A stretch of DNA of 64,000 nucleotides from Chrysomallon squamiferum. Its lineage: Eukaryota; Animalia; Mollusca. Under the pieces are notes generated by a model that saw only the letters and a list, made by a program, of their open reading frames with translations, did no database searches and had not been told where the DNA came from. Position numbers and translations under genes: made by a program. The stretch covers positions 2,666,001 to 2,730,000 of the forward strand of contig CM022674.1 in the NCBI GenBank assembly GCA_012295275.1, given 5' to 3'. This document shows positions 25,591 through 61,190 of this stretch, one piece after another (positions within the stretch are counted from its first letter, which is position 1; each line of letters begins with the position of its first letter).

Positions 25591-28500
25591 ATGTTGATAC
25601 AAACAGACACAACAGAGAGAAATATAACTGAGTAATATTTATTTAACAAATATAAGAGTGTTGTCACCATGATTTGAAGTTCTACCCATGTTCATACTTA
25701 TTTATTCCAAAAATTTAATATTTTCAGAACTTCTTATGGTACTAAATAAGTAAATATAAAATACTTTAAGAATTAAATTGAAAACAAACAAATATGAATA
25801 GTCTATTAAAAATGAGTACACAGAAAACTGAAAATATAATATGCATTGGGAAAATTGTTAAGCACTCTGGTAGAGAGAAAATGTTACTTTGAGTGTCTAG
25901 ATTACATCTGTAGTTAAAGGGTTCACTGGCAACTATTTTTATTTCTTTTATTCATTATATTGTCATATAATTACCAGTACTATTTAATACTAAAAATATG
26001 TCATTCCAAAGTGTAGAGCTGCAGAGTTCATAAATACTCAAGATAACATTTTCAGAGAGAAAGTGTTACATTGAGTCTCTAGATTACATCTGCAGTTAAA
26101 GGGTTCACTGGCAACTAAACATTCAGGTGCCTCCAACTCATCGCTCCACTTAAATGTTGGGTTTGTCAAATGGTCAACAAATGTCATTCTCAGTGCTAAG
26201 CTGATTCCACTTCCATTGTATATAAAATGTCCAACTATGATCAAATGTTCTCGAGTGGATTCAAAACTGAATTCATGACTGATCAAGGCAGAAGTGTTAA
26301 AACACTGTTTTGTACATAGCCTGTTGGAGGTCACTACTTAACTGATGACTGTAACTGTACTGAAGCTGATATCCTGTAGGTTTGATATCTTAAATTTATT
26401 CCTGTTATCTGCCATCTTTGTGTTTCTCTTGTCCACCATTGTGCCTTGTTGACACTGAATGACTGAGTTGTGGAGTTAAAGATCCCTGTCAGATACATGA
26501 GCAAACTCCAGTTCAAGAAAAACATGCAGACTTGATGCACTGGCCTATCAGATTGAAATCAGTTTTAACTGTGTTTCAGAAACAGGCAACATCATTCTGT
26601 TGTTAATTATCACAAAGTTGTAATTACTTGTAATTATTTCAGTGGTTAAATTTTCTCCAGGTGTGTATTTGAGACATTTCCATTCTTATTGTTCATAGCA
26701 CATAAATAACTGCAGTAAGAATATAATTAAGACTATTCAGATATTATCTGTACATTTATTCTGTTTATATATCATAATTCAGTTACAGGATTAAGTGTTA
26801 CTATTCTGATATTACTCATATAAATCCTGAATAATTTTAACTCACCCAAGTATGACTGTTCTACATGTTTTTGGAATTTGTGAATAGTTTTCAAAGAAAT
26901 GACAGGAAGATTTAAAATCAAATAGTAACTTCATATAAGACAAATTTCTATATAATTTATTTAATTGATTTCTGATGTCAACGTGTTCTGAGAATGAAAA
27001 ATGCATTAAATGGAAAGTTCGTGTCCCCTAAACCTAAAATAATGTCAGTGCAGTAATTTTCATTGTCTCTTGTTACATTGCTCAGATTTAGTCATTTCCA
27101 GTGATTTCTGACAACTGTTCTGTTGATTTATATCATGCATATCCATAATGTTTAGATAAATTTGGATCAGCTCTAGTAAATCTGTGTGTATTTCAGGTTG
27201 AATATGTCCAGTCACAAAAGCAGCAGAACTGCTGAGAAACAAGGTAATGCAGAGCCAGAACCTGCTGGCAAACCACCACCCCCTGAAAAGAAGAAAACTA
27301 TCAATTCCGAAACAAGGTAATTAATTAGAACTAATTTTTTACATAACTAATTGTTAAAATTGTGTTTTCATGAGTTCTTTTAAATATCATAATATAATAT
27401 CTCTATTTCAAAAATTGGGACATTTATTAGAACCGTTTTTATTTGATTATTTTTTTTTTGAAATGTTCCAGGAATATTATTATAGAATAAAAATTGAGAA
27501 TGTTGATACAAACAGACACACAGAGAAAAATAATCAAGTAATATTTATTTATCAGATATAACAGTGTTGTCACCCTGATTTGAAGTTCTACCCATGTTCA
27601 TACTTATTTATTCCAAAAATTTAATATTTTAAGAACTTCTTATGGTACTAAATAAGTAAATATAAAATACTTTAAGAATTAAATTGAAAACAAACAAATA
27701 TGAATAGTCTATTAAAAATGAGTACACAGAAAACTGAAAATATAATATGCATTGGGAAAATTGTTAAGCACTCTGGTAGAGAGAAAATGTTACTTTGAGT
27801 GTCTAGATTACATCTGTAGTTAAAGGGTTCACTGGCAACTATTTTTATTTCTTTTATTCATTATATTGTCATATAATTACCAGTACTATTTAATACTAAA
27901 AATATGTCATTCCAAAGTGTGGAGCTGCAGAGTTCATAAATACTCAAGATAACATTTTCAGAGAGAAAGTGTTACATTGAGTCTCTAGATTACATCTGTA
28001 GTTAAAGGGTTCACTGGCAACTAAACATTCAGGTGCCTCCAACTCATCGCTCCACTTAAATGTTGGGTTTGTCAAATGGTCAACAAATATCATTCTCAGT
28101 GCTAAGCTGATTCCACTTCCATTGTATATAAAATGTCCAACTATGATCAAATGTTCTCGAGTGGATTCAAAACTGAATTCATGACTGATCAAGGCAGAAG
28201 TGTTAAAACACTGTTTTGTACATAGCCTGTTGGAGGTCACTACTTAACTGATGACTGTAACTGTACTGAAGCTGATATCCTGTAGGTTTGATATCTTAAA
28301 TTTATTCCTGTTATCTGCCATCTTTGTGTTTCTCTTGTCCACCATTGTGCCTTGTTGACACTGAATGACTGAGTTGTGGAGTTAAAGATCCCTGTCAGAT
28401 ACATGAGCAAACTCCAGTTCAAGAAAAACATGCAGACTTGATGCACTGGCCTATCAGATTGAAATCAGTTTTAACTGTGTTTCAGAAACAGGCAACATCA

Positions 28501-31500
28501 TTCTGTTGTTAATTATCACAAAGTTGTAATTACTTGTAATTATTTCAGTGGTTAAATTTTCTCCAGGTGTGTATTTGAGACATTTCCATTCTTATTGTTC
28601 ATAGCACATAAATAACTGCAGTAAGAATATAATTAAGACTATTCAGATATTATCTGTACATTTATTCTGTTTATATATCATAATTCAGTTACAGGATTAA
28701 GTGTTACTATTCTGATATTACTCATATAAATCCTGAATAATTTTAACTCACCCAAGTATGACTGTTCTACATGTTTTTGGAATTTGTGAATAGTTTTCAA
28801 AGAAATGACAGGAAGATTTAAAATCAAATAGTAACTTCATATAAGACAAATTTCTATATAATTTATTTAATTGATTTCTGATGTCAACGTGTTCTGAGAA
28901 TGAAAAATGCATTAAATGGAAAGTTCGTGTCCCAAACCTAAAATAATGTCAGTGCAGTAATTTTCATTGTCTCTTGTTACATTGCTCAGATTTAGTCATT
29001 TCCAGTGATTTCTGACAACTGTTCTGTTGATTTATATCATGCATATCCATAATGTTTAGATAAATTTGGATCAGCTCTAGTAAATCTGTGTGTATTTCAG
29101 GTTGAATATGTCCAGTCACAAAAGCAGCAGAACTGCTGAGAAACAAGGTAATGCAGAGCCAGAACCTGCTGGCAAACCACCACCCCCTGAAAAGAAGAAA
29201 ACTATCAATTCCGAAACAAGGTAATTAATTAGAACTAATTTTTTACATAACTAATTGTTAAAATTGTGTTTTCATGAGTGCTTTTAAATATCATAATATA
29301 ATATCTCTATTTCAAAAATTGGGACATTTATTAGAACCGTTTTTATCTGATTATTTTTTTTTTTTTTGAAATGTTCCAGGAATATTATTATAGAATAAAA
29401 ATTGAGAATGTTGATACAAACAGACACACAGAGAAAAATAATCAAGTAATATTTATTTATCAGATATAACAGTGTTGTCACCCTGATTTGAAGTTCTACC
29501 CATGTTCATACTTATTTATTCCAAAAATTTAATATTTTAAGAACTTCTTATGGTACTAAATAAGTAAATATAAAATACTTTAAGAATTAAATTGAAAACA
29601 AACAAATATGAATAGTCTATTAAAAATGAGTACACAGAAAACTGAAAATATAATATGCATTGGGAAAATTGTTAAGCACTCTGGTAGAGAGAAAATGTTA
29701 CTTTGAGTGTCTAGATTACATCTGTAGTTAAAGGGTTCACTGGCAACTATTTTTATTTCTTTTATTCATTATATTGTCATATAATTACCAGTACTATTTA
29801 ATACTAAAAATATGTCATTCCAAAGTGTGGAGCTGCAGAGTTCATAAATACTCAAGATAACATTTTCAGAGAGAAAGTGTTACATTGAGTCTCTAGATTA
29901 CATCTGTAGTTAAAGGGTTCACTGGCAACTAAACATTCAGGTGCCTCCAACTCATCGCTCCACTTAAATGTTGGGTTTGTCAAATGGTCAACAAATATCA
30001 TTCTCAGTGCTAAGCTGATTCCACTTCCATTGTATATAAAATGTCCAACTATGATCAAATGTTCTCGAGTGGATTCAAAACTGAATTCATGACTGATCAA
30101 GGCAGAAGTGTTAAAACACTGTTTTGTACATAGCCTGTTGGAGGTCACTACTTAACTGATGACTGTAACTGTACTGAAGCTGATATCCTGTAGGTTTGAT
30201 ATCTTAAATTTATTCCTGTTATCTGCCATCTTTGTGTTTCTCTTGTCCACCATTGTGCCTTGTTGACACTGAATGACTGAGTTGTGGAGTTAAAGATCCC
30301 TGTCAGATACATGAGCAAACTCCAGTTCAAGAAAAACATGCAGACTTGATGCACTGGCCTATCAGATTGAAATCAGTTTTAACTGTGTTTCAGAAACAGG
30401 CAACATCATTCTGTTGTTAATTATCACAAAGTTGTAATTACTTGTAATTATTTCAGTGGTTAAATTTTCTCCAGGTGTGTATTTGAGACATTTCCATTCT
30501 TATTGTTCATAGCACATAAATAACTGCAGTAAGAATATAATTAAGACTATTCAGATATTATCTGTACATTTATTCTGTTTATATATCATAATTCAGTTAC
30601 AGGATTAAGTGTTACTATTCTGATATTACTCATATAAATCCTGAATAATTTTAACTCACCCAAGTATGACTGTTCTACATGTTTTTGAATTTGTGAATAG
30701 TTTTCAAAGAAATGACAGGAAGATTTAAAATCAAATAGTAACTTCATATAAGACAAATTTCTATATAATTTATTTAATTGATTTCTGATGTCAACGTGTT
30801 CTGAGAATGAAAAATGCATTAAATGGAAAGTTCGTGTCCCGAAACCTAAAATAATGTCAGTGCAGTAATTTTCATTGTCTCTTGTTACATTGCTCAGATT
30901 TAGTCATTTCCAGTGATTTCTGACAACTGTTCTGTTGATTTATATCATGCATATCCATAATGTTTAGATAAATTTGGATCAGCTCTAGTAAATCTGTGTG
31001 TATTTCAGGTTGAACATGTCCAGTCACAAAAGCAGCAGAACTGCTGAGAAACAAGGTAATGCAGAGCCAGAACCTGCTGGCAAACCACCCCCCCCTGAAA
31101 AGAAGAAAACAAGGTAATTAATTAGAACTAATTTTTTACATAACTAATTGTTAAAATTGTGTTTTCATGAGTGCTTTTAAATATCATAATATAATATCTC
31201 TATTTCAAAAATTGGGACATTTATTAGAACCGTTTTTATTTGATTATTTTTTTTTGAAATGTTCCAGGAATATTATTATAGAATAAAAATTGAGAATGTT
31301 GATACAAACAGACACACAGAGAAAAATAATCAAGTAATATTTATTTATCAGATATAACAGTGTTGTCACCCTGATTTGAAGTTCTACCCATGTTCATACT
31401 TATTTATTCCAAAAATTTAATATTTTAAGAACTTCTTATGGTACTAAATAAGTAAATATAAAATACTTTAAGAATTAAATTGAAAACAAACAAATATGAA

Positions 31501-34500
31501 TAGTCTATTAAAAATGAGTACACAGAAAACTGAAAATATAATATGCATTGGGAAAATTGTTAAGCACTCTGGTAGAGAGAAAATGTTACTTTGAGTGTCT
31601 AGATTACATCTGTAGTTAAAGGGTTCACTGGCAACTATTTTTATTTCTTTTATTCATTATATTGTCATATAATTACCAGTACTATTTAATACTAAAAATA
31701 TGTCATTCCAAAGTGTGGAGCTGCAGAGTTCATAATACTCAAGATAACATTTTCAGAGAGAAAGTGTTACATTGAGTCTCTAGATTACATCTGTAGTTAA
31801 AGGGTTCACTGGCAACTAAACATTCAGGTGCCTCCAACTCATCGCTCCACTTAAATGTTGGGTTTGTCAAATGGTCAACAAATATCATTCTCAGTGCTAA
31901 GCTGATTCCACTTCCATTGTATATAAAATGTCCAACTATGATCAAATGTGCTCTAGTGGATTCAAAACTGAATTCATGACTGATCAAGGCAGAAGTGTTA
32001 AAACACTGTTTTGTACATAGCCTGTTGGAGGTCACTACTTAACTGATGACTGTAACTGTACTGAAGCTGATATCCTGTAGGTTTGATATCTTAAATTTAT
32101 TCCTGTTATCTGCCATCTTTGTGTTTCTCTTGTCCACCATTGTGCCTTGTTGACACTGAATGACTGAGTTGTGGAGTTAAAGATCCCTGTCAGATACATG
32201 AGCAAACTCCAGTTCAAGAAAAACATGCAGACTTGATGCACTGGCCTATCAGATTGAAATCAGTTTTAACTGTGTTTCAGAAACAGGCAACATCATTCTG
32301 TTGTTAATTATCACAAAGTTGTAATTACTTGTAATTATTTCAGTGGTTAAATTTTCTCCAGGTGTGTATTTGAGACATTTCCATTCTTATTGTTCATAGC
32401 ACATAAATAACTGCAGTAAGAATATAATTAAGACTATTCAGATATTATCTGTACATTTATTCTGTTTATATATCATAATTCAGTTACAGGATTAAGTGTT
32501 ACTATTCTGATATTACTCATATAAATCCTGAATAATTTTAACTCACCCAAGTATGACTGTTCTACATGTTTTCGGAATTTGTGAATAGTTTTCAAAGAAA
32601 TGACAGGAAGATTTAAAATCAAATAGTAACTTCATATAAGACAAATTTCTATATAATTTATTTAATTGATTTCTGATGTCAACGTGTTCTGAGAATGAAA
32701 AATGCATTAAATGGAAAGTTCGTGTCCCAAAACCTAAAATAATGTCAGTGCAGTAATTTTCATTGTCTCTTGTTACATTGCTCAGATTTAGTCATTTCCA
32801 GTGATTTCTGACAACTGTTCTGTTGATTTATATCATGCATATCCATAATGTTTAGATAAATTTGGATCAGCTCTAGTAAATCTGTGTGTATTTCAGGTTG
32901 AATATGTCCAGTCACAAAAGCAGCAGAACTGCTGAGAAACAAGGTAATGCAGAGCCAGAACCTGCTGGCAAACCACCACCCCTGAAAAAAGAAGAAAACT
33001 ATCAATTCCGAAACAAGGTAATTAATTAGAACTAATTTTTTACATAACTAATTGTTAAAATTGTGTTTTCATGAGTGCTTTTAAATATCATAATATAATA
33101 TCTCTATTTCAAAAATTGGGACATTTATTAGAACCGTTTTTATCTGATTATGTTTTTTTTTAAATGTTCCAGGAATATTATTATAGAATAAAAATTGAGA
33201 ATGTTGATACAAACAGACACACAGAGAAAAATAATCAAGTAATATTTATTTATCAGATATAACAGTGTTGTCACCCTGATTTGAAGTTCTACCCATGTTC
33301 ATACTTATTTATTCCAAAAATTTAATATTTTAAGAACTTCTTATGGTACTAAATAAGTAAATATAAAATACTTTAAGAATTAAATTGAAAACAAACAAAT
33401 ATGAATAGTCTATTAAAAATGAGTACACAGAAAACTGAAAATATAATATGCATTGGGAAAATTGTTAAGCACTCTGGTAGAGAGAAAATGTTACTTTGAG
33501 TGTCTAGATTACATCTGTAGTTAAAGGGTTCACTGGCAACTATTTTTATTTCTTTTATTCATTATATTGTCATATAATTACCAGTACTATTTAATACTAA
33601 AAATATGTCATTCCAAAGTGTGGAGCTGCAGAGTTCATAAATACTCAAGATAACATTTTCAGAGAGAAAGTGTTACATTGAGTCTCTAGATTACATCTGT
33701 AGTTAAAGGGTTCACTGGCAACTAAACATTCAGGTGCCTCCAACTCATCGCTCCACTTAAATGTTGGGTTTGTCAAATGGTCAACAAATATCATTCTCAG
33801 TGCTAAGCTGATTCCACTTCCATTGTATATAAAATGTCCAACTATGATCAAATGTGCTCTAGTGGATTCAAAACTGCATTCATGACTGATCAAGGCAGAA
33901 GTGTTAAAACACTGTTTTGTACATAGCCTGTTGGAGGTCACTACTTAACTGATGACTGTAACTGTACTGAAGCTGATATCCTGTAGGTTTGATATCTTAA
34001 ATTTATTCCTGTTATCTGCCATCTTTGTGTTTCTCTTGTCCACCATTGTGCCTTGTTGACACTGAATGACTGAGTTGTGGAGTTAAAGATCCCTGTCAGA
34101 TACATGAGCAAACTCCAGTTCAAGAAAAACATGCAGACTTGATGCACTGGCCTATCAGATTGAAATCAGTTTTAACTGTGTTTCAGAAACAGGCAACATC
34201 ATTCTGTTGTTAATTATCACAAAGTTGTAATTACTTGTAATTATTTCAGTGGTTAAATTTTCTCCAGGTGTGTATTTGAGACATTTCCATTCTTATTGTT
34301 CATAGCACATAAATAACTGCAGTAAGAATATAATTAAGACTATTCAGATATTATCTGTACATTTATTCTGTTTATATATCATAATTCAGTTACAGGATTA
34401 AGTGTTACTATTCTGATATTACTCATATAAATCCTGAATAATTTTAACTCACCCAAGTATGACTGTTCTACATGTTTTTGGAATTTGTGAATAGTTTTCA

Positions 34501-37500
34501 AAGAAATGACAGGAAGATTTAAAATCAAATAGTAACTTCATATAAGACAAATTTCTATATAATTTATTTAATTGATTTCTGATGTCAACGTGTTCTGAGA
34601 ATGAAAAATGCATTAAATGGAAAGTTCGTGTCCCGAAACCTAAAATAATGTCAGTGCAGTAATTTTCATTGTCTCTTGTTACATTGCTCAGATTTAGTCA
34701 TTTCCAGTGATTTCTGACAACTGTTCTGTTGATTTATATCATGCATATCCATAATGTTTAGATAAATTTGGATCAGCTCTAGTAAATCTGTGTGTATTTC
34801 AGGTTGAATATGTCCAGTCACAAAAGCAGCAGAACTGCTGAGAAACAAGGTAATGCAGAGCCAGAACCTGCTGGCAAACCACCACCCCCTGAAAAGAAGA
34901 AAACTATCAATTCCGAAACAAGGTAATTAATTAGAACTAATTTTTTACATAACTAATTGTTAAAATTGTGTTTTCATGAGTGCTTTTAAATATCATAATA
35001 TAATATCTCTATTTCAAAAATTGGGACATTTATTAGAACCGTTTTTATCTGATTATTTTTTTTTTTTTGAAATGTTCCAGGAATATTATTATAGAATAAA
35101 AATTGAGAATGTTGATACAAACAGACACACAGAGAAAAAATAATCAAGTAATATTTATTTATCAGATATAACAGTGTTGTCACCCTGATTTGAAGTTCTA
35201 CCCATGTTCATACTTATTTATTCCAAAAATTTAATATTTTAAGAACTTCTTATGGTACTAAATAAGTAAATATAAAATACTTTAAGAATTAAATTGAAAA
35301 CAAACAAATATGAATAGTCTATTAAAAATGAGTACACAGAAAACTGAAAATATAATATGCATTGGGAAAATTGTTAAGCACTCTGGTAGAGAGAAAATGT
35401 TACTTTGAGTGTCTAGATTACATCTGTAGTTAAAGGGTTCACTGGCAACTATTTTTATTTCTTTTATTCATTATATTGTCATATAATTACCAGTACTATT
35501 TAATACTAAAAATATGTCATTCCAAAGTGTGGAGCTGCAGAGTTCATAAATACTCAAGATAACATTTTCAGAGAGAAAGTGTTACATTGAGTGTCTAGAT
35601 TACATCTGTAGTTAAAGGGTTCACTGGCAACTAAACATTCAGGTGCCTCCAACTCATCGCTCCACTTAAAAACAAATGTCATTCTCAGTGCTAAGCTGAT
35701 TCCACTTCCATTGTATATAAAATGTCCAACTATGATCAAATGTGCTCTAGTGGATTCAAAACTGAATTCATGACTGATCAGGGCAGAAGTGTTAAAACAC
35801 TGTTTTGTACATAGCCTGTTGGAGGTCACTACTTAACTGATGACTGTAACTGTACTGAAGCTGATATCCTGTAGGTTTGATATCTTAAATTTATTCCTGT
35901 TATCTGCCATCTTTGTGTTTCTCTTGTCCACCATTGTGCCTTGTTGACACTGAATGACTGAGTTGTGGAGTTAAAGATCCCTGTCAGATACATGAGCAAA
36001 CTCCAGTTCAAGAAAAACATGCAGACTTGATGCACTGGCCTATCAGATTGAAATCAGTTTTAACTGTGTTTCAGAAACAGGCAACATCATTCTGTTGTTA
36101 ATTATCACAAAGTTGTAATTACTTGTAATTATTTCAGTGGTTAAATTTTCTCCAGGTGTGTATTTGAGACATTTCCATTCTTATTGTTCATAGCACATAA
36201 ATAACTGCAGTAAGAATATAATTAAGACTATTCAGATATTATCTGTACATTTATTCTGTTTATATATCATAATTCAGTTACAGGATTAAGTGTTACTATT
36301 CTGATATTACTCATATAAATCCTGAATAATTTTAACTCACCCAAGTATGACTGTTCTACATGTTTTTGGAATTTGTGAATAGTTTTCAAAGAAATGACAG
36401 GAAGATTTAAAATCAAATAGTAACTTCATATAAGACAAATTTCTATATAATTTATTTAATTGATTTCTGATGTCAACGTGTTCTGAGAATGAAAAATGCA
36501 TTAAATGGAAAGTTCGTGTCCCGAAACCTAAAATAATGTCAGTGCAGTAATTTTCATTGTCTCTTGTTACATTGCTCAGATTTAGTCATTTCCAGTGATT
36601 TCTGACAACTGTTCTGTTGATTTATATCATGCATATCCATAATGTTTAGATAAATTTGGATCAGCTCTAGTAAATCTGTGTGTATTTCAGGTTGAATATG
36701 TCCAGTCACAAAAGCAGCAGAACTGCTGAGAAACAAGGTAATGCAGAGCCAGAACCTGCTGGCAAACCACCACCCCCTGAAAAGAAGAAAACTATCAATT
36801 CCGAAACAAGGTAATTAATTAGAACTCATTTTTTACATAACTAATTGTTAAAATTGTGTTTTCATGAGTGCTTTTAAATATCATAATATAATATCTCTAT
36901 TTCAAAAATTGGGACATTTATTAGAACCGTTTGTATTTGATTTTTTTTTTTTTGAAATGTTCCAGGAATATTATTATAGAATAAAAATTGAGAATGTTGA
37001 TACAAACAGACACACAGAGAAAAATAATCAAGTAATATTTATTTATCAGATATAACAGTGTTGTCACCCTGATTTGAAGTTCTACCCATGTTCATACTTA
37101 TTTATTCCAAAAATTTAATATTTTAAGAACTTCTTATGTTACTAAATAAGTAAATATAAAATACTTTAAGAATTAAATTGAATACAAACAAATATGAATG
37201 GTCTATTAAAAATGAGTACACAGGAAAGTGAAAATATAATATGCATCTGGAAAATTGTTAAGCACTCTGGTATTGGACATATTTTTATTTCTTTTATTCA
37301 TTATATTGTCATATAATTACAAGTACTATTTAATACTAAAAATATGTCATTCCAAAGTGTGGAGCTGCAGAGTTCATAAATACTCAAGATAACATTTTCA
37401 GAGAGAAAGTGTTACATTGAGTGTCTAGATTACATCTGTTGTTAAAGGGTTCACTGGCAACTAAACATTCAGGTGCCTCCAACTCATCGCTCCACTTAAA

Positions 37501-41740: not shown

Positions 41741-41759
41741 ATAATTTACTACAATCAGA

Positions 41760-42300
41760 GTATAACTAAAACTATTCCGATATTATCTTTACATTTTGTT
41801 TATATTATTTAATGCAAATGTCAAAATATTTGTTACAAAACTGATATATAACTTAGTACACTATTGTGATAATCATTATATTTACTACAAAAGAAAAATG
41901 TTACTTTATATAACTATTCTGATAATTAGTGCATTTACTACAAAGCTAAGATACAGCTTAGAATAACTGATAGTTATTACATTTATTACAAAATTAATAT
42001 AATCTTAGCCTAGCTATTGTGATTATTATATTTACTATAAAATTACTATATAATTTAGAATAATTATTATGTTGATTACAAAACTAATATATATATATAT
42101 CTTAGAATAGCTACTGTGATAATTACATTTAGTACAAACCTAAGATATAACTTAGAATAACTATTATGATAATTATTACATTCACTACAAAACTAAGATA
42201 ATATAAGTTAATATAACTATTCTAATAGTTATAATATTTACAACAAAACTAAAGTATGTCATTGTATGACTATTGTGATAATTATTTAGTACTGCAGTTT
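41760..42300. repeat. Degenerate AT-rich minisatellite, ~50-60 bp period
   Basis: Recurring approximate unit ataattattacatttactacaaaactaagatataacttagaataactattgtg directly after the 1.9-kb array. Confidence 0.7.
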
Positions 42301-42574
42301 AAGAAACATCCCACAAATGTTTTTGTGATAATTATCACTTGATTGTTATAAAATATTTCGAATGAACTGATTCTAATATGAATATGAGTAATTAATTACA
42401 ACAATATTAAGTTTGACATTAACAGGGTAGCAGTAATTACATTTTCATGATTTTTTACATAACAGTCTAACATCACTATTTACAAAATGATGATATTTAG
42501 TAAAACCATTTTCATTTTACTATTTTTAAATATTTTCATTAATATATTTATAGAACAAAAGTTGAGAATTCTGA

Positions 42575-42806
42575 CTGAGCTGTTTCACATTAGTACTGGT
42601 CAGCAACTGATATGTAAAATAGTATGCACTGTCTGTGGGTAGGTGTAAATGACATATCACTTGTTGTTAATAAGAAAGAGTAGACTTATGAGGAGGTGGC
42701 AGTGGGTTTCTTCTCTTTTTTTTTTGTTATCAGAATTTTATTGAAATACGTGTCTGTCCCCATATAACAGTGAGTACAATGTGTTAAATAAAACATTTGT
42801 TTTCTT
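42575..42806 (+). mobile_element. Degenerate 3' part of a molluscan SINE-like element in an intron
   Basis: ctgtctgtggg...cacttgttgttaataagaaagagtag...gtggcagtgggtttcttctc...tgtctgtccccatataac...atgtgttaaataaaacattt resembles, from memory, the core and tail of widespread molluscan SINEs. Not checked against a repeat library. Confidence 0.55.
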
Positions 42807-42834
42807 TCATAAATAATTATATTATCTTTTACAG

Positions 42835-42968
42835 CTCAGCCATTATGGATGTCAGAGAAGAGAGTTCAGAAAATTCATCTGATTTAACAGTTGCATCTTC
42901 CTCAGACAGTATGAAAAAAAATGATTAATATCTTTAATAATGAAGTATTTCAAATCCTGTTTACTTTT

Positions 42969-43000
<32 letters not shown>

Positions 43001-44022
43001 CCTTTTTTTAGTTATGCTTTGTAAAGCAAGACATTTTTGTTTTATATTCATAATAAATTAACAGTCAAAGATTTTGGTTTGGTTTTTGTTAGAAAATACA
43101 CATTTATTATTACTTGATTATTTTATGCACAATTAGTTAACAATTTTATTGTTATATTCAGAAATACTGTTCAGACAGATTTTGTTAAAACTGTACACTG
43201 CCATATCTCTGCATGCACATAAAATGTGTTTAGAAATAATATTTAGAAATTGTTAATTTAAATAATTTCTTTTCCTCCACTGACAAAGATACTGGAAGAT
43301 CACAACCAGTGGTAGAACACAATGTAAATATCAGCACAGTTCAGAAGGCTGTGTCTAACAACAGGAATGTTGTGTTTGGAAATCAAGTTACTAAAATCAG
43401 TAAGTTAAAAACTGAAAGTTTCCTTTCCTCTACCTTCTTAATAAATAAGTGAATACACGTCGCAGTAGTCATTAGTATTTTTCTGTCAGACACTGTGACC
43501 AGAAGAACATAGAAACATGCACATACATGTATAGACATAATACATACAAACATATGTACATGTATACTCAATTAACGTATACACAGAAGACATACGTACA
43601 CACACATAAACATGCAGACATGCATTAGACACGCACACACATATTCAGAGACAGATTATCTTCTTAAACTATTAATATATATGCCTGTCATTATTATTGC
43701 CTGTAAATATTGAAATATGGTCCAAGGTACAATAACAACAACAACAACATTAATAATAATACCAACAATATCAATAAATAAATAACATCAGTGATAAGAA
43801 ACTAGAACAGTAGATTTGACAATAGGATGAATAATTATAATAAATGAATAACAAAAAATAAAATTCTAATAATTTTATATATTTAGTGTTTCACGAATAA
43901 AGTGCAGTGTAGTTGTACACATCCCTTTAATCATTCTCTTTTATTCATCATCAATATAAACTTATTTGTTTTATTTTTTATTATTTCAGCAAAGACTGAT
44001 GGACGAGCATCCAATATCAAAG
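42835..44022 (+). CDS. Three small linker exons of the NLR-like gene, the middle one with a RHIM/cRHIM-like motif
   Basis: 42835-42908 (SAIMDVREESSENSSDLTVASSSD, phase 2 to 1), 43289-43399 (TGRSQPVVEHNVNISTVQKAVSNNRNVVFGNQVTKI, phase 1 to 1), 43990-44022 (KTDGRASNIK, phase 1 to 1). All have AG/GT boundaries, no stops, and phases that match the NTPase exon starting at 44269. Confidence 0.8.
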
Positions 44023-44268
44023 GTATTTTTATATTTTCTTAAATTATTATTTGTACAATTTTCAAGGACGTTCATAAATAAAAGATAATCTTATTATCTT
44101 CATTAAACTCTGATGAACTAAAATTGTGACAAAAAATTCCTGCATCATTTTAAAACCTTCACATCTGATGACAACTTAAAAATAATATTATTTATAGTTA
44201 AATGATAAAATATGTTGAAAACAGTTACCAATAAATTTTAATTTTTTTTTTTAAATGTTGTGATACAG

Positions 44269-47200
44269 AGTCTACCAGGTTAGAGTTAAACTCAGTTGAC
44301 TGGAGAGTCTATGTGGAAACAAGAGTAGAGAAAAGAGGTGTAGAACTTTTGAAGAAGCATGGTGTTGTGATTGTAGTAGGATGTCCAGGTTCAGGGAAGA
44401 CATCTCTAGCTTTGAGCATAATGAGACAGATAGAAAATGAAGAAAAAATAAAACTTTACAAGCTGACTCATCACAATGAATTTTATGACATCTCTTTGAA
44501 AATAAAAAATGTGTTGTTCTCATTGATGATATATTTGGTAAGACTAATCTTGTTTCAGATTTTATAGTCATCATGGAAACTAAAATTTCCAAACATATGG
44601 AATCATGTTCAGAATGGTTCTTTGAAATGTATTATTACTTTAAGAAAGCAAATATTTTCAGAAGCTAAAATTGGTTTGAAGGAATTTGGTCTGTTTAATG
44701 AGAATCATGTTCTTGATCTGCAGAGTGATGACTGTTGTCTGCTTCATGATGAAAAGAAAAAAATTCTTAACAATTATCTCGAATTAAAGAATGTTAAAAT
44801 GAATCAATATGATAAACACACTATCTTATTTCTGAGTTCATGTAAAGAATTAGGATTTCCTCAGATTTGTGTGTATTATGTTAATTCAAGTGATGCACAG
44901 AAAAGAGGAGTTAAGTTTTTTAACAAACCTATAGAATATCTTGGACAACAGCTAGAAAATGTGAAAAATGACAAATCTTTACAGATCAATTACTTGGTTC
45001 TACTGCTACTCTTGTTCAAGCAAGGCAGTCTCAGTGTTGATTCACTGGACCATTTTGAAAATGACATTGACAGTGACATAATGAAATTAGTAAGACTGCT
45101 AGAGGGAGCCTGTCTGAGTCTGAAAAACACTGGTCTCAGAGATATAAAGAAAACAGCTGATGAAATGTGTGGTACCTATTTGATGTGTTCACACAATAAA
45201 TATACATTTATTCACCAGTCAGTGTTTGACTGTTTATTTCTGATGTTTACATCAGAGTTTCCAAAGAAAGCAGCAGAATTGCTAGAAGTGTGTCCAGTTT
45301 CCATGTTGTTAGAATATGTTGTGACGCCTGGAGTGTCTAACAAAAGTCACATTACAATGACACTGAAACCTGACTGTTTTGATGTTCTTGCTCGCAGATT
45401 CACTGACCTGCTGGCATCAGATAATGCCAGTGAAATTGTTTCACATCCATCACTGAAAGATGATGAGTTTTTGAAGTATCTCATACAGGAAAAAATGTTT
45501 TATGGAAGGTTTTCTGAAATACTGCATCAGGAACTTTCTCTAGGTCGAAATAGTCATGGTTATATATCATTCGTGCATGCAAACAATGCTAATGAAATGT
45601 TTAGCCTCATTCCATATGTTTCTGACAATGATTCAAACTTTAATTCGTATGACATGAGGAGGGTGAGAATTAGAAAAGATTTTATAGAGACATCATTGAG
45701 AGTTAAAGAAGATTTTATAAAGACATCATATGTTGCAAGTGAGTGTATTGTGGGCAAACTAAGAACATTGTCACAATTTTTCACAAATATAGTGTGTGAA
45801 ATGGAATTAACTTACCAGAAAACAGAACTTCTGAATTTTTCTTGTTTGTTTGGTGATGAAGATGTTGTGAGGATGTTGCTAAAATCAGGTGTTACTCCAT
45901 ATTTTGAAACATTCACTATAGCTGCTTGTTCAAAAACAGACAGTGCTACTGTATTCAGAGAATTGATACAGTATAAAAAGGATATGAAATTGACTATGTG
46001 TTCCTGCTTGTTATGTATTTCAATTTGTTCAGAAAACATGAATATTGCCTGTCTTTTGGCTGACATGATAAACAATGAGGAACACAACCATGTCTTCAAG
46101 AAAAGAGCTGTGAAACTGTTATTGATTTGGTTCCACAGACATGAAAATATGTACCAATGGAAATCTTTTTTAGATGCCCAGAGACTTTTAAAGTTGTTGA
46201 TGTAAGCCAACTTTTTAAGAAACTGGTCACCATTGATATAATAAAAGAAATTAAAAACATTGCTATCATTGCTGCTGGTCAGAGGAATTCAGGTGTTATA
46301 AAAGAAATAGTAAAACTGAAACCTGATTGTTTAAATGTTGAGAACAGAGATAAAGTATTTTAGCAGCAACAATATGGGGATGTCACTGATACAGTGAATT
46401 TTCTCATTGAACAGAGACAAAATGATACGGATGAGAACAATTGGAAAAAAGTCAGACACTGAAAGCAGCTGTGACGTTTAACAGTGCTGATGTTGTTCAG
46501 AGTCTTCTTGATAAAGGAGCTGATCCTAATGTAAATGAAGCTATTAACCAGAAATTGATTCACTTGTTTGAACATAAAACTAGTTTGAAATTGTTGCCTT
46601 CAGACTCACCTCTCCACATTTCAGTTCTGTTTGGTGACTTAGATATAATAAAATCACTAATAAAGAGAAATGCTGATGTTAACGCAGTAAACAGTGAGGG
46701 GAAAACTCCACTTCATGAAGCTGTAAACGCAGAGACAAACAGAAAGGAAATAGCTTTGTTGTTACTGGAAAATGGTGCTGATGTTAACATAACAGATAAA
46801 CAACAGAATTCAGCATTGCACATAGCATCTCAAATTGATATAGATGTAGTGAAAGAAGTAACAAAAAGGGGTGTTGAAATAAATGTAATTAACACTGAAG
46901 GGGAAACTCCTCTTCTTTTGTCCTTACGCAATAACATACCAGAAATAGCTTTACATTTACTAAAACAAGGAGCTGACCCTAATTTTACAGACGATGGTGG
47001 CTATTCTGTTTTACACACAGCAGCTGAATATGGAAATATAGAAATTGTGACAGCACTGGTTGAAAAAGGAGTTGATGTAAATAGTAAAAACTCTCAAGGA
47101 GGAACTCCTCTTTTAACATCTGTTAATTATGATGAAGATGATCTTCATCCATCTTCACATGATGAAGAATGTAAAGCGGCTTTTTATATACAGGAAGATG

Positions 47201-50200
47201 GAGCTGATCCTAATTTAAAAGACAGTGATAACATTTCTGTTTTACATCTAGCAGCTAAATATGGAAATATAGAACTTGTAACAGCACTGACTGTAAAAGG
47301 TTTTGATGTAAATATTAAAAACAGAAAAGGTGAAACGGTTCTTCTTACAGCACTGAAATCTTATATATATAGTTTTGAAAAACATCACACATGGATTAAA
47401 ACACATTTTGATGTAAATATTAAAACTAGTCAAGGTGAAACTCCTCTTTTTGCAGCTGTTAAGCATGGACACAACAAAGTAGCTTTGTACTTACTGGATC
47501 ATGGAGCTGAACCTAATTCTGTTTTGCGTCTAGCAGAAGAAATGGAAAATTTAGAAATTGTGACAGCACTGATTGAGAAAAGTGTTGATGTAAATATTAG
47601 AAATGCTCGAGGTGAAACTCCTCTTTCTATAGTTGTTAATTATGATGAAGATAAACTTCATCTGTATCTGAATAGTGAAATGGATAAAGTAGTGTTTCAT
47701 TTACTGGAACAAGGAGCTGATCCTAATTTAACAGACAATGATAACAACTCTGCTTTACACTTAGCAGCTAAACATGGAAATACAGAAATTGTGAAAGCAC
47801 TGATTGAAAAAGGTGTTGAGGTAAACCTTAAAAACTGTTATGGAGAAACTCCTCTTTTTACAGCTGTTGAGGATGTTGATAAACATGATCTATCCGTGGT
47901 TTTAGAGAAATGTAAAATAAGTTTGTTTTTACTGGAAAATGGAGCTGATCCTAATTTAACAAACAATGATAAAAATTCTGTTTTATACGTAGCAGCTAAA
48001 CAAGGAAATATAGAAATTGTGAAAGTTTTGATTGAAAAAGGTGTCGATGTGAATATTAAAAATAGTAGAGGTAAAACTCCAATTTTAGGAGCTTTTGATT
48101 ATGATATATTTGATGCTTCTCAATCTAGGAATGATGAAAAATGTAGGGTAGTTTTTTATTTACTAGAACACAGAGCTGATCCCAGTTTAACAGACGATGA
48201 TCAGAATTCAGTTTTACACTTAGCAGCTGAACATGGAAATATAGAAATCGTGAAAGCACTGATTGAAAAAAGTCTTGATGTAAATACTAAGAATAGTAGA
48301 GGTGAAACACCTTTATTTTCAACTCTTTGTTATGAAGAGCATAAACTTTATCCATCTCTTCGTTATGATATTAATCCGTCTCTGAAAGAGGAAAAATTGA
48401 AAGTACTTGTTCATTTACTGGAACATGGAGCTGACCCTAATATAACACGCAATGATCAGAATTCTCTTTTACACCTGGCAGCTATTTCTGGTGATATGAA
48501 CATTTTGAGGGAACTAATTAAAAATGGTTGTGATGTTAATATTACAAACGGTGAAGGGGAAACTCCTCTTCTTCAAGTTCTGAGTTCCAAAGCACGTGCT
48601 TCTAAAATAATTCAGTCTTTTACGACTTTTAACAAAGATATTATTATTTTTTTACTGGAACATGGTGCTGATCCACGTGTTACAGAAAAATATTCTAACA
48701 ACTCTCTTTTACACTTAGCAGCTAAAGAACAAAAGATAGAAATTGTGAAACTACTGATTGAAAAAGGTTTTGATGTAAATATTAAAAACAACAGAGGTAA
48801 AACTCCTCTTTTTGCAGCTGTTGATTATAATCTATATCTGAATGACAAAAAATGTAAAGTATTTTTTCATTTACTGGAACATGGAGCTCATCCTAATTTA
48901 ACTGACAGTGATAACAATTCAGTTTTACACAGAGCAGCTAACCATGGAAATGTAGAAAGTATGACAGCACTCATTGAAAAAGGTGCTGATGTAAATATTA
49001 AAAACAACAGAGGTGAAACTCCTCTTTTTAAAGCTGTTGATTATAATCTATGTCAAATAGTTTTTCATTTACTGGAACATGGAGCTGATCCTAATTTAAT
49101 TGACAGTGATAACAATTCAGTTTTAGACAGAGCAGCTAAACATGGAAATGTAGAAATTATGACAGCACTGATTGAAAAAGGTGCTGATGTAAATATTAAA
49201 AACAACACAGGTGAAACTCCTCTTTTTACACCTGTTAAGTATGTTGAAGATGAAGATGATCCATTTCTGAATGATGAAAAATGTGAAGTAGTTTTTCATT
49301 TACTGGAATGTGGTGCTGATCCTAATTTAACTGACAGTGATAAAAATTATGTTTTATACGTAGCAGCTAAACAAGGAAATATAGAAATTGTGAAAGTTTT
49401 GATTAAAAAAGGTGTCGATGTGAATATTAAAAATAGTAGAGGTGAAACTCCAATTTTAGGAGCTCTTGATTATAATATATTTGATGTTTCTCAATTTCTG
49501 AATGATAAAAAATGTAAAGTAGTTTTTTATTTACTGGAACATGGAGCTGATCCCAATTTAACAGACGATGATCAGAATTCAGTTTTACACAGAGCAGCTG
49601 AACATGGAAATATAGAAATCGTGAAACTACTGATTGAAAAAGGTGTTGATGTAAATATTAAAAACAACAGAGGTGAAACTCCTCTTTTTGCAGCTGTTGA
49701 TTATAATCTATATCTGAATGATCAAAAATGTAAAGTAGTTTTTCATTTACTGGAACATGGAGCTGATCCCTAATTTAACTGACAGTGATAACAATTCTGT
49801 TTTACACAGAGCAGCTAAAGATGGAAATGTAGAAATTGTGACAGCTCTGATTGAAAAAGGTGTTGATGTAAATATTAAAAACAACAGAGGTGAAACTCCT
49901 CTTCTTGTAGCTGCTAATTATGAAAAGGCTGAACTGTTTCCATGTCTGAAAAACCAAAAAGTAAAACAGCTCTTCATTTACTGGAACATGGTGCTGATCC
50001 TGATTTAATTGACAATGATAAAAATTCTGTTTTACACTTAGCAGCTAAATATGGAAATACAGAAATTGTGAAAGCACTGATTGAAAAAGATGTTGAGGTA
50101 AACCTTAAAAACTGTTATGGAAAAACTCCTCTTTTTACAGCTGTTGAGGATGTTGATAAACTTGATCTATCCGTGGATTTAGAGAAATGTAAAATAAGTT

Positions 50201-53200
50201 TGTTTTTACTGGAAAATGGAGCTGATCCTAATTTAACAGACAATGATAAAAATTCTGTTTTACACTTAGCAGCTAAACATGGAAATGTAGAACTTGTGAA
50301 AGTTTTGATTAAAAAAGGTGTTGATGTGAATATTAAAAATAGTAGAGGTAAAACTCCAATTTTAGGAGCTCTTGATTATAATATATGTGATGTTTCTCGA
50401 TCTAGGAATGATGAAAACTGTAAAGTATTTCTTCATTTACTGGAACATGGAGCTGATCTCAATTTAACAGACGATGATCAGAATTCAGTTTTACACTTAG
50501 CAGCTAAACATGGAAATATAGAAATCGTGAAAGTACTGATTGAAAAAGGTCTTGATGTAAATACTAAGAATAGTAGAGGTGAAACACCTTTATTTTCAAC
50601 TCTTTGTTATGATGAGCATAAACTTTATCCATCTCTGAAAGAGGAAAAATTGAAAGTATTTTTTCATTTACTGGAACATGGAGCTGACCCTAATATAACA
50701 CGCAATGATAAGAATTCTCTTTTACACCTGGCAGCTATTTCTGGTAATATGAATATTTTGAGGGAACTAATTAAAAATGGTTGTGATGTTAATATTACAA
50801 ACGGTGAAGGGGAAACTCCTCTTCTTCAAGTTCTGAGTCCCAAAGGACATACTTTTAACATAACTCAGTCTTTTATGACTTTTTACGACGATATTATTAT
50901 TTTTTTACTGGAACATGGTGCTGATCCACGTGTTACAGAAAAATATTCTAACAATACTGCTTTACACTTTGCAGCTCAACAACGAAATATAGAAATTGTG
51001 ACAGCACTGATTGAAAAAGGTGTTGATGTAAATATTAAAAACAACAGAGGTGAAACTCCTCTTTTTACAGCTGTTAAGTATGTTGAAGATCAAAATGATC
51101 TATTTCTCAGTGATGGAAAATGTGAAGTAGTTTTTCTTTTACTGGAATGTGGAGCTGATCCTAATTTAACTGACAGTGATAACAATTCTGTTTTACACTT
51201 AGCAGCTAAAAAAGGAAATATAGAAATTGTGACTGCACTGATTGAAAAAGGTGTTGATGTAAATATTAAAAACAACAGAGGTGAAACTCCTCTTTTTGCA
51301 GTTGTTGATTATAATCTATATCTGAATGACAAAAAATGTAAAGTAGTTTTTCATTTACTGGAACATGGAGCTGATCCTAATTTAACTGACAGTGATAACA
51401 ATTCTGTTTTACACTTAGCAGCTAAAAAAGGAAATGTAGAAATTATGAAACCTCTGACTGAAAAAGGTGCTGATGTAAATATTAAAAACTGTAGAGGTGA
51501 AGCTCCTCTTCTTGTAGCTGCTAATTATGAAAAGGATCAACTGTTTCCATATCTGAAAAACCGAAAAAGTAAAACAGCTCTTCATTTACTGGAACATGGT
51601 GCTGATCCTGATTTAATTGACAATGATAAAAATTCTGTTTTACACTTAGCAGCTAAATATGGAAATACAGAAATTGTGAAAGCACTGATTGAAAAAGATG
51701 TTGAGGTAAACCTTAAAAACTATTATGGAAAAACTCCTCTTTTTACAGCTGTTGAGGATGTTGATAAACTTGATCTATCCGTGGATTTAGAGAAATGTAA
51801 AATAAGTTTGTTTTTACTGGAAAATGGAGCTGATCCTAATTTAACAGACAATGATAAAAATTCTGTTTTACACTTAGCAGCTAAATATGGAAATACAGAA
51901 ATTGTGAAAGCACTGATTGAAAAAGATGTTGAGGTAAACCTTAAAAACTGTTATGGAAAAACTCCTCTTTTTACAGCTGTTGAGGATGTTGATAAACTTG
52001 ATCTATCCGTGGTTTTAGAGAAATGTAAAATAAGTTTGTTTTTACTGGAAAATGGAGCTGATCCTAATTTAACAGACAATGATACAAATTCTGTTTTACA
52101 CTTAGCAGCTAAACATGGAAATGTAGAACTTGTGAAAGTTTTGATTAAAAAAGGTGTCGATGTGAATATTAAAAATAGTAGAGGTGAAACTCCAATTTTA
52201 GGAGCTCTTGATTATAATATATGTGATGTTTCTCGATCTAGGAATGATGAAGACTGTAAAGTATTTCTTCATTTACTGGAACATGGAGCTGATCCCAATT
52301 TAACAGACGATGATCAGAATTCTGTTTTACACTTAGCAGCTAAACATGGAAATACAGAAATTGTGAAAGTACTGATTGAAAAAGGTCTTGATGTAAATAC
52401 GAAAAATAGTAGAGGTGAAACTCCTTTATTTTCAACTCTTTGTTATGATGAGTATAAACTTTATCCATCTCTGAAAAAGGAAAAATCGAAAGTATTTCTT
52501 CATTTACTAGAACATGGAGCTGATCCCAATTTAACAGACGATGATCAGAATTCAGTTTTACACTTAGCAGCTAAACATGGAAATATAGAAATTGTGAAAG
52601 CACTGATTGAAAAAGGTCTTGATGTAAATACGAAAAATAGTAGAGGTGAAACTCCTTTATTTTCAACTCTTTGTTATGATGAGCATAAACTTTATCCATC
52701 TCTGAAAAAGGAAAAATCGAAAGTATTTCTTCATTTACTAGAACATGGAGCTGATCCTGATTTAATTGACAATGATAAAAATTCTGTTTTACACTTAGCA
52801 GCTAAATATGGAAATACAGAAATTGTGAAAGCACTGATTGAAAAAGATGTTGAGGTAAACCTTAAAAACTGTTATGGAAAAACTCCTCTTTTTACAGCTG
52901 TTGAGGATGTTGATAAACTTGATCTATCCGTGGTTTTAGAGAAATGTAAAATAAGTTTGTTTTTACTGGAAAATGGAGCTGATCCTAATTTAACAGACAA
53001 TGATAAAAATTCTGTTTTATACATAGCAGCTAAACAAGGAAATATAGAAATTGTGAAAGTTTTGATTAAAAAAGGTGTCGATGTGAATATTAAAAATAGT
53101 AGAGGTAAAACTCAATTTTTAGGAGCTCTTGATTATAATATATGTGATGTTTCTCGATCTAGGAATGATAAAAAATGTGAAGTAGTTTTTTATTTACTGG

Positions 53201-55614
53201 AACATGGAGCTGATCCCAATTTAACAGACGATGATCAGAATTCAGTTTTACACTTAGCAGCTAAACATGGAAATATAGAAATTGTGAAAGCACTGATTGA
53301 AAAAGGTCTTGATGTAAATACGAAAAATAGTAGAGGTGAAACTCCTTTATTTTCAACTCTTTGTTATGATGAGCATAAACTTTATCCATCTCTGAAAAAG
53401 GAAAAATCGAAAGTATTTCTTCATTTACTAGAACATGGAGCTGATCCCAATTTAACAGACGATGATCAGAATTCAGTTTTACACTTAGCAGCTAAATGTG
53501 GAAATACAGAAATTGTGAAAGCACTGATTGAAAAAGGTCTTGATGTAAATACGAAAAATAGTAGAGGTGAAACTCCTTTATTTTCAACTCTTTGTTATGA
53601 TGAGGATGAACTTGATCCATCTTTTTGTTATGATGAGTATGAACTTTATCGATCTCTGAAAAAGGAAAAATCGAAAATATTTCTTTATTTACTGGAACAT
53701 GGAGCTGATCCCAATTTAACAGACGATGATCAGAATTCTGTTTTACACTTAGCAGCTAAACATGGAAATATAGAAATCGTGAAAGCACTGATTGAAAAAG
53801 GTCTTGATGTAAATACGAAAAATAGTAGAGGTGAAACTCCTTTATTTTCAACTCTTTGTTATGATGAGGATGAACTTGATCCATCTCTTTGTTATGATGA
53901 GTATGAACTTTATCCATCTCTGAAAAAGGAAAAATCGAAAATATTTCTTTATTTACTGGAACATGGAGCTGATCCCAATTTAACAGACGATGATCAGAAT
54001 TCTGTTTTACACTTAGCAGCTAAACATGGAAATATAGAAATTGTGAAAGCACTGATTGAAAAAGGTCTTGATGTAAATACGAAAAATAGTAGAGGTGAAA
54101 CTCCTTTATTTTCAACTCTTTGTTATGATGAGCATAAACTTTATCCATCTCTGAAAAAGGAAAAATCGAAAGTATTTCTTCATTTACTAGAACATGGAGC
54201 TGATCCTGATTTAATTGACAATGATAAAAATTCTGTTTTACACTTAGCAGCTAAATATGGAAATACAGAAATTGTGAAAGCACTGATTGAAAAAGATGTT
54301 GAGGTAAACCTTAAAAACTGTTATGGAAAAACTCCTCTTTTTACAGCTGTTGAGGATGTTGATAAACTTGATCTATCCGTGGATTTAGAGAAATGTAAAA
54401 TAAGTTTGTTTTTACTGGAAAATGGAGCTGATCCTAATTTAACAGACAATGATAAAAATTCTGTTTTATACATAGCAGCTAAACAAGGAAATATAGAAAT
54501 TGTGAAAGTTTTGATTAAAAAAGGTGTCGATGTGAATATTAAAAATAGTAGAGGTAAAACTCCAATTTTAGGAGCTCTTGATTATAATATATGTGATGTT
54601 TCTCGATCTAGGAATGATAAAAAATGTGAAGTAGTTTTTTATTTACTGGAACATGGAGCTGATCCCAATTTAACAGACGATGATCAGAATTCAGTTTTAC
54701 ACTTAGCAGCTAAACATGGAAATACAGAAATTGTGAAAGTACTGATTGAAAAAGGTCTTGATGTAAATACGAAAAATAGTAGAGGTGAAACTCCTTTATT
54801 TTCAACTCTTTGTTATGATGAGTATAAACTTTATCCATCTCTGAAAAAGGAAAAATCGAAAGTATTTCTTCATTTACTAGAACATGGAGCTGATCCCAAT
54901 TTAACAGACGATGATCAGAATTCAGTTTTACACTTAGCAGCTAAACATGGAAATATAGAAATTGTGAAAGCACTGATTGAAAAAGGTCTTGATGTAAATA
55001 CGAAAAATAGTAGAGGTGAAACTCCTTTATTTTCAACTCTTTGTTATGATGAGCATAAACTTTATCCATCTCTGAAAAAGGAAAAATCGAAAGTATTTCT
55101 TCATTTACTAGAACATGGAGCTGATCCCAATTTAACAGACGATGATCAGAATTCAGTTTTACACTTAGCAGCTAAATGTGGAAATACAGAAATTGTGAAA
55201 GCACTGATTGAAAAAGGTCTTGATGTAAATACGAAAAATAGTAGAGGTGAAACTCCTTTATTTTCAACTCTTTGTTATGATGAGGATGAACTTGATCCAT
55301 CTCTTTGTTATGATGAGTATGAACTTTATCCATCTCTGAAAAAGGAAAAATCGAAAATATTTCTTTATTTACTGGAACATGGAGCTGATCCCAATTTAAC
55401 AGACGATGATCAGAATTCTGTTTTACACTTAGCAGCTAAACATGGAAATATAGAAATCGTGAAAGCACTGATTGAAAAAGGTGTTGATGTAAATGTTATC
55501 AATTCAACAGGTGAAACTCCTCTTGATAAGGCTACGAGCTACAGATTTCACTGTAAGGAAAGTGACACTATTTTGTATTTATTGGAGCATGGTGCTAAAC
55601 ACAGTAACAGATAA
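44269..55614 (+). CDS. Giant terminal exon: nSTAND3-type STAND NTPase, helical/winged-helix region and about 80 ankyrin repeats (NLR-like receptor); broken by several 1-nt frameshifts in this assembly
   Basis: YVETRVEKRGVELLKKHGVVIVVGCPGSGKT (Walker A), CVVLIDDIFGK (Walker B, in the shifted frame ~44512-44545), IITLRKQIF (sensor-1), LGFPQIC (GxP), YTFIHQSVFD (MHD-like). ORFs 46441-49773, 49757-50008 and 49942-55614 contain TPL/SVLHLAA...GADPN/GVDVN ankyrin repeats. Stop TAA at 55612-55614. Confidence 0.92.
47000..55560 (+). repeat. Coding tandem repeat of ~228-264-bp two-ankyrin cassettes with very high nucleotide identity
   Basis: Blocks such as aattcagttttacacttagcagctaaacatggaaatatagaaattgtgaaagcactgattgaaaaagg recur about every 230 bp. 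Identity is highest from 51.6 to 55.5 kb. Confidence 0.95.
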
Positions 55615-56226
55615 AATAAATTTTGAAATAAAAAGCCCTGAACATTTCAGTGCACACAGGCTGTCACTTTTAAGTTGAATATTAACTGGTGAGAACATTT
55701 TAAAGTCGTGCAGAAGTAATATTTATGTACAAATGTGTTTCAAAGTTCATCTTAATTTTCTACATCATCCTGAAGCACAATGACATGGTTTCATTCTAAA
55801 CTGCTTTATTTGTACTTATTTTCAATAATGTTCTATGAGTGTATATCACTATGTGCTAGGAAATGTGCACAGGTTTAACTTTTCAGTTCAAAAGTATAAA
55901 TATTGATACATGAGCCAAACAGCATTTTCGAAAATAGAATTTGTGAACAAATGCATTGTGGTGAAGAGTTAAAATCCAATACAAGTTTCTGTAACTATAT
56001 TGCTATGTAGTCTGGTGTATGTCAAGATACTATTAATTGTTTCTATTCTATACTGTGTGCCCTGTTATTTCTATTCAAGTGTTGTATTATTGAATAGCCT
56101 TATTTTTGTTTCTGTACAAATATTGTATTATCATATTGTATAACATTTTGTTTCTATACAAATATTGTACGATCATATTTTATAATCTATTGTATTTATT
56201 CAAATATTGCATTAATGCATGGTGTA

Positions 56227-56854: not shown

Positions 56855-56889
<35 letters not shown>

Positions 56890-56906
56890 CAATATGTTAA
56901 TGTATG

Positions 56907-56937
<31 letters not shown>

Positions 56938-61135: not shown

Positions 61136-61190
<55 letters not shown>

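Follow-up and report, generated by a model that had tools for sequence, protein, structure and literature searches.

The 64,000-nucleotide stretch of Chrysomallon squamiferum DNA analysed here (the window) carries, at 27197-55614 on the plus strand, a gene whose sequence places it in a family of ankyrin-bearing nSTAND3 STAND ATPases that is expanded in molluscs. Proteins of this family are very probably intracellular NLR-like sensors. In the window gene the nSTAND3 NTPase is followed by a long, shuffled ankyrin array and preceded by a short motif in the register of a RHIM; the reading of the gene as an NLR-like sensor that signals through this RHIM-like motif is finely balanced. The pattern across the family is real and, as far as it appears, undescribed, and it is there that the value of the finding lies; the present copy is possibly dead.

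Reading through eight single-nucleotide frame breaks (X at each) from one start exon gives a protein of 3,894 amino acids (aa). From the N-terminus, a disordered spacer leads into the 37-codon exon that carries the RHIM-register motif; the nSTAND3 STAND NTPase, a helical region and an array of about 80 ankyrin repeats follow. The sequence-only reading had joined these parts into one protein of roughly 3,900-4,200 aa. The exons, their phases and the length of the read-through agree with such a protein, but the assembly has no single open frame from ATG to stop, and six-frame translation yields a P-loop piece at 44235-44564, a piece of 545 aa and two ankyrin frames, 1,112 and 1,893 aa long. The parts of the gene are:

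24018-24103, 24434-24518 and 25434-25588, plus strand: three likely 5' untranslated exons, with AG/GT ends in the sequence
25588-41805, plus strand: tandem array of about 8.5 DNA units of about 1.9 kb, one start exon per unit (self-BLAST, 90-98% identity)
27197-40510, plus strand: eight copies of a 120-nucleotide start exon (ATG and a disordered 40-aa unit)
42835-42908, plus strand: acidic, serine-rich linker exon
43289-43399, plus strand: motif exon, symmetric (phase 1-1); the RHIM-register motif KAVSNNRNVVFG occupies 43345-43380
43990-44022, plus strand: linker exon of 11 codons
44269-45420, plus strand: nSTAND3 STAND module, from Pfam, alignment, motifs and the fold of homolog P0003; frame breaks near 44486 and 44570
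45421-46440, plus strand: helical connector and degenerate ankyrins; frame breaks near 46150, 46356, 46384 and 46440
46441-55614, plus strand: about 80 ankyrins in two-repeat units of 198-264 nucleotides with a variable insert; frame breaks near 49768 and 49965
55612-55614, plus strand: stop codon

The exons at 40398 (the ATG) to 40510, 42835-42908, 43289-43399 and 43990-44022 and the giant exon that follows (44269-55614) have AG/GT ends and agreeing phases, and the joined N-terminal exons are free of stops as far as the first frame break. The acceptor of the motif exon is AAG, which is weaker. Two of the likely untranslated exons, 24018-24103 and 24434-24518, are duplicates with 82% identity. 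Loose contig ends from the RNA runs contain the spliced junction 44022/44269 (one contig in X2, three paralog-like contigs in X7), and some transcripts therefore start upstream of the giant exon; these runs contain intronic DNA as well. Among the junctions listed, none joins the motif exon or one start exon to another, with 177 joints and 1,114 loose ends lying beyond those listed. Contig depth in the RNA runs is higher over exons than over introns, a difference not used as evidence because the runs cover introns and depth cannot rank the parts of a gene.

No death-fold, TIR or enzyme family scored above the Pfam cut-off in 71 upstream and intronic plus-strand frames of at least 45 aa, a scan that took in one tandem unit of the start-exon array. 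The gene had been described as lacking any such N-terminal domain, and this description stands; a conventional effector exon upstream, named beforehand as a contrary finding, was looked for in the same frames and not found.

In the NTPase, Pfam nSTAND3 (PF20720) matches the first piece with 42.8 bits against a cut-off of 27.2 (E 5.7e-11) and the next piece with 23.3 bits (E 5.9e-5), and Ank families match alongside it, as had been expected of a profile search. NACHT (18.2 bits) and NB-ARC (17.3 bits) both fall under their Pfam cut-offs. A strict definition of an NLR (NACHT or NB-ARC with leucine-rich repeats) does not cover the gene, since these domains score below cut-off and the sensor is built of ankyrins. 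The read-through contains Walker A, Walker B, GxP and winged-helix H-motifs. A model of the NTPase core of homolog P0003 (pLDDT 73) has the NRC1 NB-ARC as its top Foldseek match (E 2.4e-6, TM 0.49), and in VIA it matches MalT (Z 16.1, root-mean-square deviation 4.8 over 309 aligned residues), NRC2 (Z 14.3) and an archaeal STAND-TPR protein (Z 13.5). NLRP structures are also matched, and AAA+ proteins rank after the STAND matches and over shorter ranges. The predicted fold is thus NBD-HD1-WHD of the STAND type, as modelled on this homolog rather than on the window NTPase.

A mollusc family with shuffled ankyrin sensors

The proteins nearest in sequence come from Gigantopelta aegis (35-37% identity over the helical piece), followed by those of Haliotis. 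In a tree of 32 of 63 rows, one of them the window, the window gene falls into a group with seven Gigantopelta proteins (99/98). A profile of the NTPase-helical core finds 62 proteins, of which 58 are named Gigantopelta or Haliotis and nearly all are nSTAND3-ankyrin proteins, and it finds 2,811 cluster representatives at E <= 0.001, the best 150 of which were listed; named examples of the family include Solemya and Pinctada. Searched against the Atlas, the P0003 core has a mollusc nSTAND3 cluster as its best match and bacterial nSTAND3 clusters after it. In run X1, 2,966 of 5,137 contigs are 90-95% alike, a sign that the same species, or a close one, has many paralogs. A search for proteins of near length with the helical piece returned nothing among 6,587 candidates.

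The position ahead of the NTPase is variable across the family. Ten of 30 chosen relatives have a recognisable domain there (caspase in one, Death in two, HEPN in four and SAM in three), and the window motif occupies this same slot. Many other members lack a folded N-terminal domain and have in its place a disordered tail, which contains a beta-prone motif like that of the window. One relative, P0069, has a caspase domain, nSTAND3 and a long ankyrin array, a one-protein sensor-protease. In P0001, P0007, P0059, P0104 and P0171, nSTAND3 occurs with an N-terminal hydrophobic, likely transmembrane segment, preceded in P0059 and P0104 by a cysteine-rich part; these sequences suggest membrane-anchored STAND receptors or fused gene models. 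Four proteins (P0064, P0120, P0121 and P0165) have two nSTAND3 domains; these are likely either neighbouring gene models that were fused or genuine tandem receptors.

The proposal of a shuffled sensor of about 80 ankyrins is borne out by 78 repeat anchors and two double-length gaps. When 47194-55374 is cut into 32 segments, their order is the mosaic ABCDEFGCHIBCDJKIBBCLLBCLMMLBCLLM. Twenty-nine pairs of units are at least 97% identical, the non-adjacent units 21, 24 and 31 are identical in DNA, and variation is concentrated in an insert within every second repeat. By our own measure (not T-REKS), 82% of the C-terminal part lies within internal repeats at least 70% alike, so the window gene shows high internal conservation, defined as repeats at least 70% alike within the gene and in shuffled order. 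The same property is found in 43 of 60 proteins measured, the window included, and in none of the seven Gigantopelta relatives. Its absence from these closest relatives suggests that it arose separately in the window lineage and in Haliotis. In all domains of life, ATPase-bearing proteins show an enrichment of such internally conserved repeats (PMC13449251, available text).

The state of the assembled copy

The eight frame breaks weigh against a functional product, and the alternative that this copy is a pseudogene or a null allele, whatever the family does, is evenly poised with its opposite. The breaks cluster in the non-repeat 2.2 kb of the giant exon (six of the eight; p = 0.001 over the whole exon, p = 0.04 over the older 5.7 kb only). 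Letters private to the window divide into 16 nonsynonymous and 6 synonymous, near the neutral expectation of 24% synonymous (from the top rows of 621). If the copy is dead, the ankyrin array may have been kept clean by recent duplication and conversion, and it may donate repeats to intact paralogs; Podospora NWD pseudogenes likewise keep intact repeats (PMC13449251, available text).

Other observations oppose this explanation. None of the nine segments between the breaks contains an in-frame nonsense codon. Two codon variants seen in sister repeats are merged at the 49768 break, and the break at 49965 and the frameshift of start exon 4 lie at homopolymers, so these three look like consensus errors from merged alleles or homopolymers. 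The contigs give evidence in both directions. At 44570 the extra base is missing from most contig depth, including all of X7, but a single-copy-like residue of depth keeps it in X1 (88) and X3 (8), which favours a genuine break. Against a dead copy, an X2 loose end at 46361 has the extra T, and at the 46150 break near-identical X2 and X3 contigs carry one gap (of unstated sign). The X1 contig at that break carries three. The evidence on this copy is therefore mixed and about even, and we consider that it is intact with a confidence just short of even.

The N-terminal motif and the repeated start exons

The motif in the window has the core VVFG. This fits the VxxG core pattern of the cRHIM of insects and crustaceans (PMC13506858, available text) and departs from the canonical RHIM tetrad, (V/I)Q(V/I/L/C)G (PMC9444067, available text). 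Close Gigantopelta relatives have near-canonical forms, VKDCSNVQFG in P0064 and ISGNRNVQI in P0095, and the canonical tetrad itself occurs in two of 59 held-out relatives; the Solemya proteins P0093 and P0099 have it as IQLG, VQVG and IQIG. Most N-termini in the first set of mollusc proteins are disordered and end in a short stretch rich in Asn, Gly, Val, Ile and Thr before the NTPase. A profile from 12 relatives ranks the window motif first among 60,306 stop-free 12-mers, and a Gibbs profile from which the window was left out selects the window motif exon (p = 0.004), in a run that converged only partially (total 125 against 97-110 in 12 nulls, which had fewer starts). An earlier Gibbs run had settled on the helix preceding the NTPase instead and was set aside.

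A profile of eight first-set sites was applied to 59 of 136 new proteins (77 were dropped for a short N-terminus or for want of a Walker A call). Thirteen of the 59 held-out N-termini match at p <= 0.05, where about 3 are expected, eight of them at p <= 0.01, and downstream zones match in four of 59. A regular expression written by eye matched 8 of 15 representatives in sample, all eight at 55-71 aa before Walker A; it was dropped as overfitted. The motif is absent in P0014 and P0021, it lies in a 28-aa segment present five times in tandem before the NTPase in P0041 (Haliotis), and it has no structure in a model of the P0009 monomer (pLDDT 24). Because relatives lose or multiply it and the P0009 model leaves it unstructured, the motif is a module separate from the NTPase fold. 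It recurs just upstream of the NTPase in many relatives. In P0064 VQFG occurs at two places, and a second recurrent N-terminal motif, GM.GG.A.N, possibly of another amyloid-like class, was seen in P0082, P0084, P0086, P0105 and P0025.

In the proposed mechanism, which is drawn from known STAND/NLR biology, a ligand would bind the variable ankyrin surface and ADP/ATP exchange would drive assembly of a ring. The ring would cluster the otherwise disordered motifs, which would then seed a cross-beta fold; a partner with a similar motif would be templated on it, in the way that HET-S is by NWD2. The sensor would be renewed through unequal crossover and conversion. Judged from sequence, the motif has an even chance of being an amyloid signal.

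Several results count against that role. The window motif lacks the canonical tetrad, Pfam RHIM does not match its exon at E <= 0.05 or any of 30 further relatives, and [IV]Q[IVL]G is found in none of 56 first-set N-termini. Out of sample, the regular expression matched four of 59 N-termini against 2.4 expected. The eight-site profile matches seven of 59 reversed N-termini (13 forward versus 7, p = 0.11), and this elevated control means that part of the signal is local composition; some held-out matches also resemble the training motifs and may be kin. For the 12-relative profile the sites were chosen by hand, six of them with the help of a profile to which the window had contributed. In the window the beta-propensity peak is not significant (p = 0.06), and no second high-scoring coding site that could mark a partner gene occurs in the 64-kb window. 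RHIM-bearing PGRPs and Imd are reported as not found in molluscs (PMC9835746, available text), and Aplysia is described as having no RIPKs (PMC9334734, available text). The motif exon has no match among PDB sequences at E <= 10, its matches in the Atlas are weak and uninformative, and a four-copy complex prediction (score 0.01) carries no weight either way. The motif had been called RHIM-like; the VxxG core and the family profile speak for that description, the out-of-sample failure of the regular expression and the elevated reversed control against it.

These results leave room for sensors that are NLR-like but whose motif is a short linker strand or a vestige, with effector-less members signalling through Death-, caspase- or HEPN-bearing paralogs much as in plant NRC sensor-helper networks. 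The missing tetrad and Pfam match, the weak specificity of the register, the effector-bearing members and the members without the motif all speak for such an arrangement. We nonetheless think it unlikely: the motif was confined to a narrow distance from Walker A in all eight first-set matches, it is near-canonical in close relatives and canonical in Solemya, it has its own exon in the window and is multiplied in P0041, and the effector-bearing members may not share a genome with the window gene.

Upstream of the motif, every copy of the start exon is phase-symmetric and contains an ATG; copy 3 is 15 nucleotides shorter and copy 4 is frameshifted. The 1.9-kb units span the introns too. Their head-to-tail junction is present in contigs of runs X1, X2 and X3, from two studies, so the eight start exons are a genuine tandem duplication of DNA. 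Variable columns number 5 of 121 in the exon and 26 of 1,366 in the introns. No selection on the repeated exon is seen in this comparison, and since the exon is conserved no better than the introns, its translation as a putative 40-aa repeat is a possibility. The sequence-only reading had proposed one to eight disordered 40-aa repeats; the eight ATG-bearing copies exist, but a transcript with all eight would run through the frameshifted copy 4 into a stop. Repeated disordered N-terminal segments are frequent among the relatives. Each 1.9-kb unit also holds a stop-free minus-strand frame of 92-99 aa (26041-26337 and its sister units), which has no Pfam match and was set aside.

It is very unlikely that assembly error inflated both arrays and that the real gene is much shorter: the units are near-identical, indel errors in the assembly are likely and no contig spans either array, but the unit junction recurs in three runs of two studies, units share diagnostic substitutions, the ankyrin units are mosaic rather than identical, and long conserved arrays, like repeated N-terminal segments, occur in homologs.

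Large tandem duplications lie on both sides of the gene. A second tandem array begins about 600 nucleotides past the stop codon (56226-64000; at least three copies of units of about 2.5 kb, 89-95% identical). Exons of a cytochrome P450 gene lie upstream on the same strand (2271-7467; Pfam p450 matches two frames at 2.8-7.5 kb).

Relation to known systems

In the open literature, figures and supplements being outside the scope of the search, we found no description of mollusc nSTAND3-ankyrin proteins or of their motif. nSTAND3 and ankyrins were found together only in a Podospora study (PMC13449251), whose available text does not mention molluscs and whose Figure 8c could hold examples; Figure 1 and the supplement of PMC4262963 could likewise include mollusc examples, which limits this negative. 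One NACHT-LRR protein is reported for Aplysia (PMC9334734, available text). Gastropods appear to have few classical NLRs. A large nSTAND3-ankyrin family concealed by generic ankyrin names, whose N-termini can be swapped and whose sensors are hypervariable, is a concrete candidate for intracellular non-self sensing in them. If the motif is an amyloid signal, receptor-encoded amyloid signalling, known from fungi and bacteria, would also exist in a lophotrochozoan phylum, and a findable partner is predicted. If true, this may bear on disease resistance in abalone and on symbiont control in chemosymbiotic molluscs. With less than even confidence, we propose that an NLR-like repertoire of molluscs has gone unrecognised, one built on nSTAND3 and not on NACHT, in which gastropod clades use the effector slot for a RHIM-related amyloid motif and shuffled, concertedly evolving ankyrin sensors arose more than once (in the window lineage and in Haliotis). 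It would be a variable non-self receptor system of fungal style in animals, with an undiscovered amyloid partner.

To the same family belong the nSTAND3 (PF20720)-ankyrin proteins from Gigantopelta, Haliotis, Solemya and Pinctada, which appear in databases as uncharacterized or generic ankyrin proteins; the window copy is longer and frame-broken. The window motif shares with the mammalian RHIM of RIPK1, RIPK3, ZBP1 and TRIF a 12-residue register, alternating hydrophobics, an Asn and a closing Gly. It differs from the mammalian form in its tetrad and in its lack of a Pfam RHIM match.

A design of RHIM, nucleotide-binding domain and repeats was already predicted in animals in 2014, in amphioxus. 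Branchiostoma BF82280 has a predicted N-terminal RHIM, a NACHT domain and repeats and resembles NWD2, and amphioxus RHIM proteins carry the RHIM where death-fold domains usually sit (PMC4262963, available text). That protein is of the NACHT type and comes from a chordate, whereas the mollusc gene has nSTAND3, a degenerate core and shuffled ankyrins. The earlier claim of a variable receptor is sustained as to its STAND/NLR-like build, its diversifying, internally conserved ankyrin sensor and its lack of a folded effector. The fungal NWD2/HET-S and HNWD systems likewise combine a short N-terminal motif in a disordered tail, a STAND core, shuffled conserved repeats and pseudogenised alleles (PMC4262963 and PMC13449251, available text). 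The window gene differs from these fungal NLRs in having nSTAND3 rather than NACHT, two-repeat ankyrin units rather than WD40 and no adjacent effector gene in the window, and its amyloid is putative.

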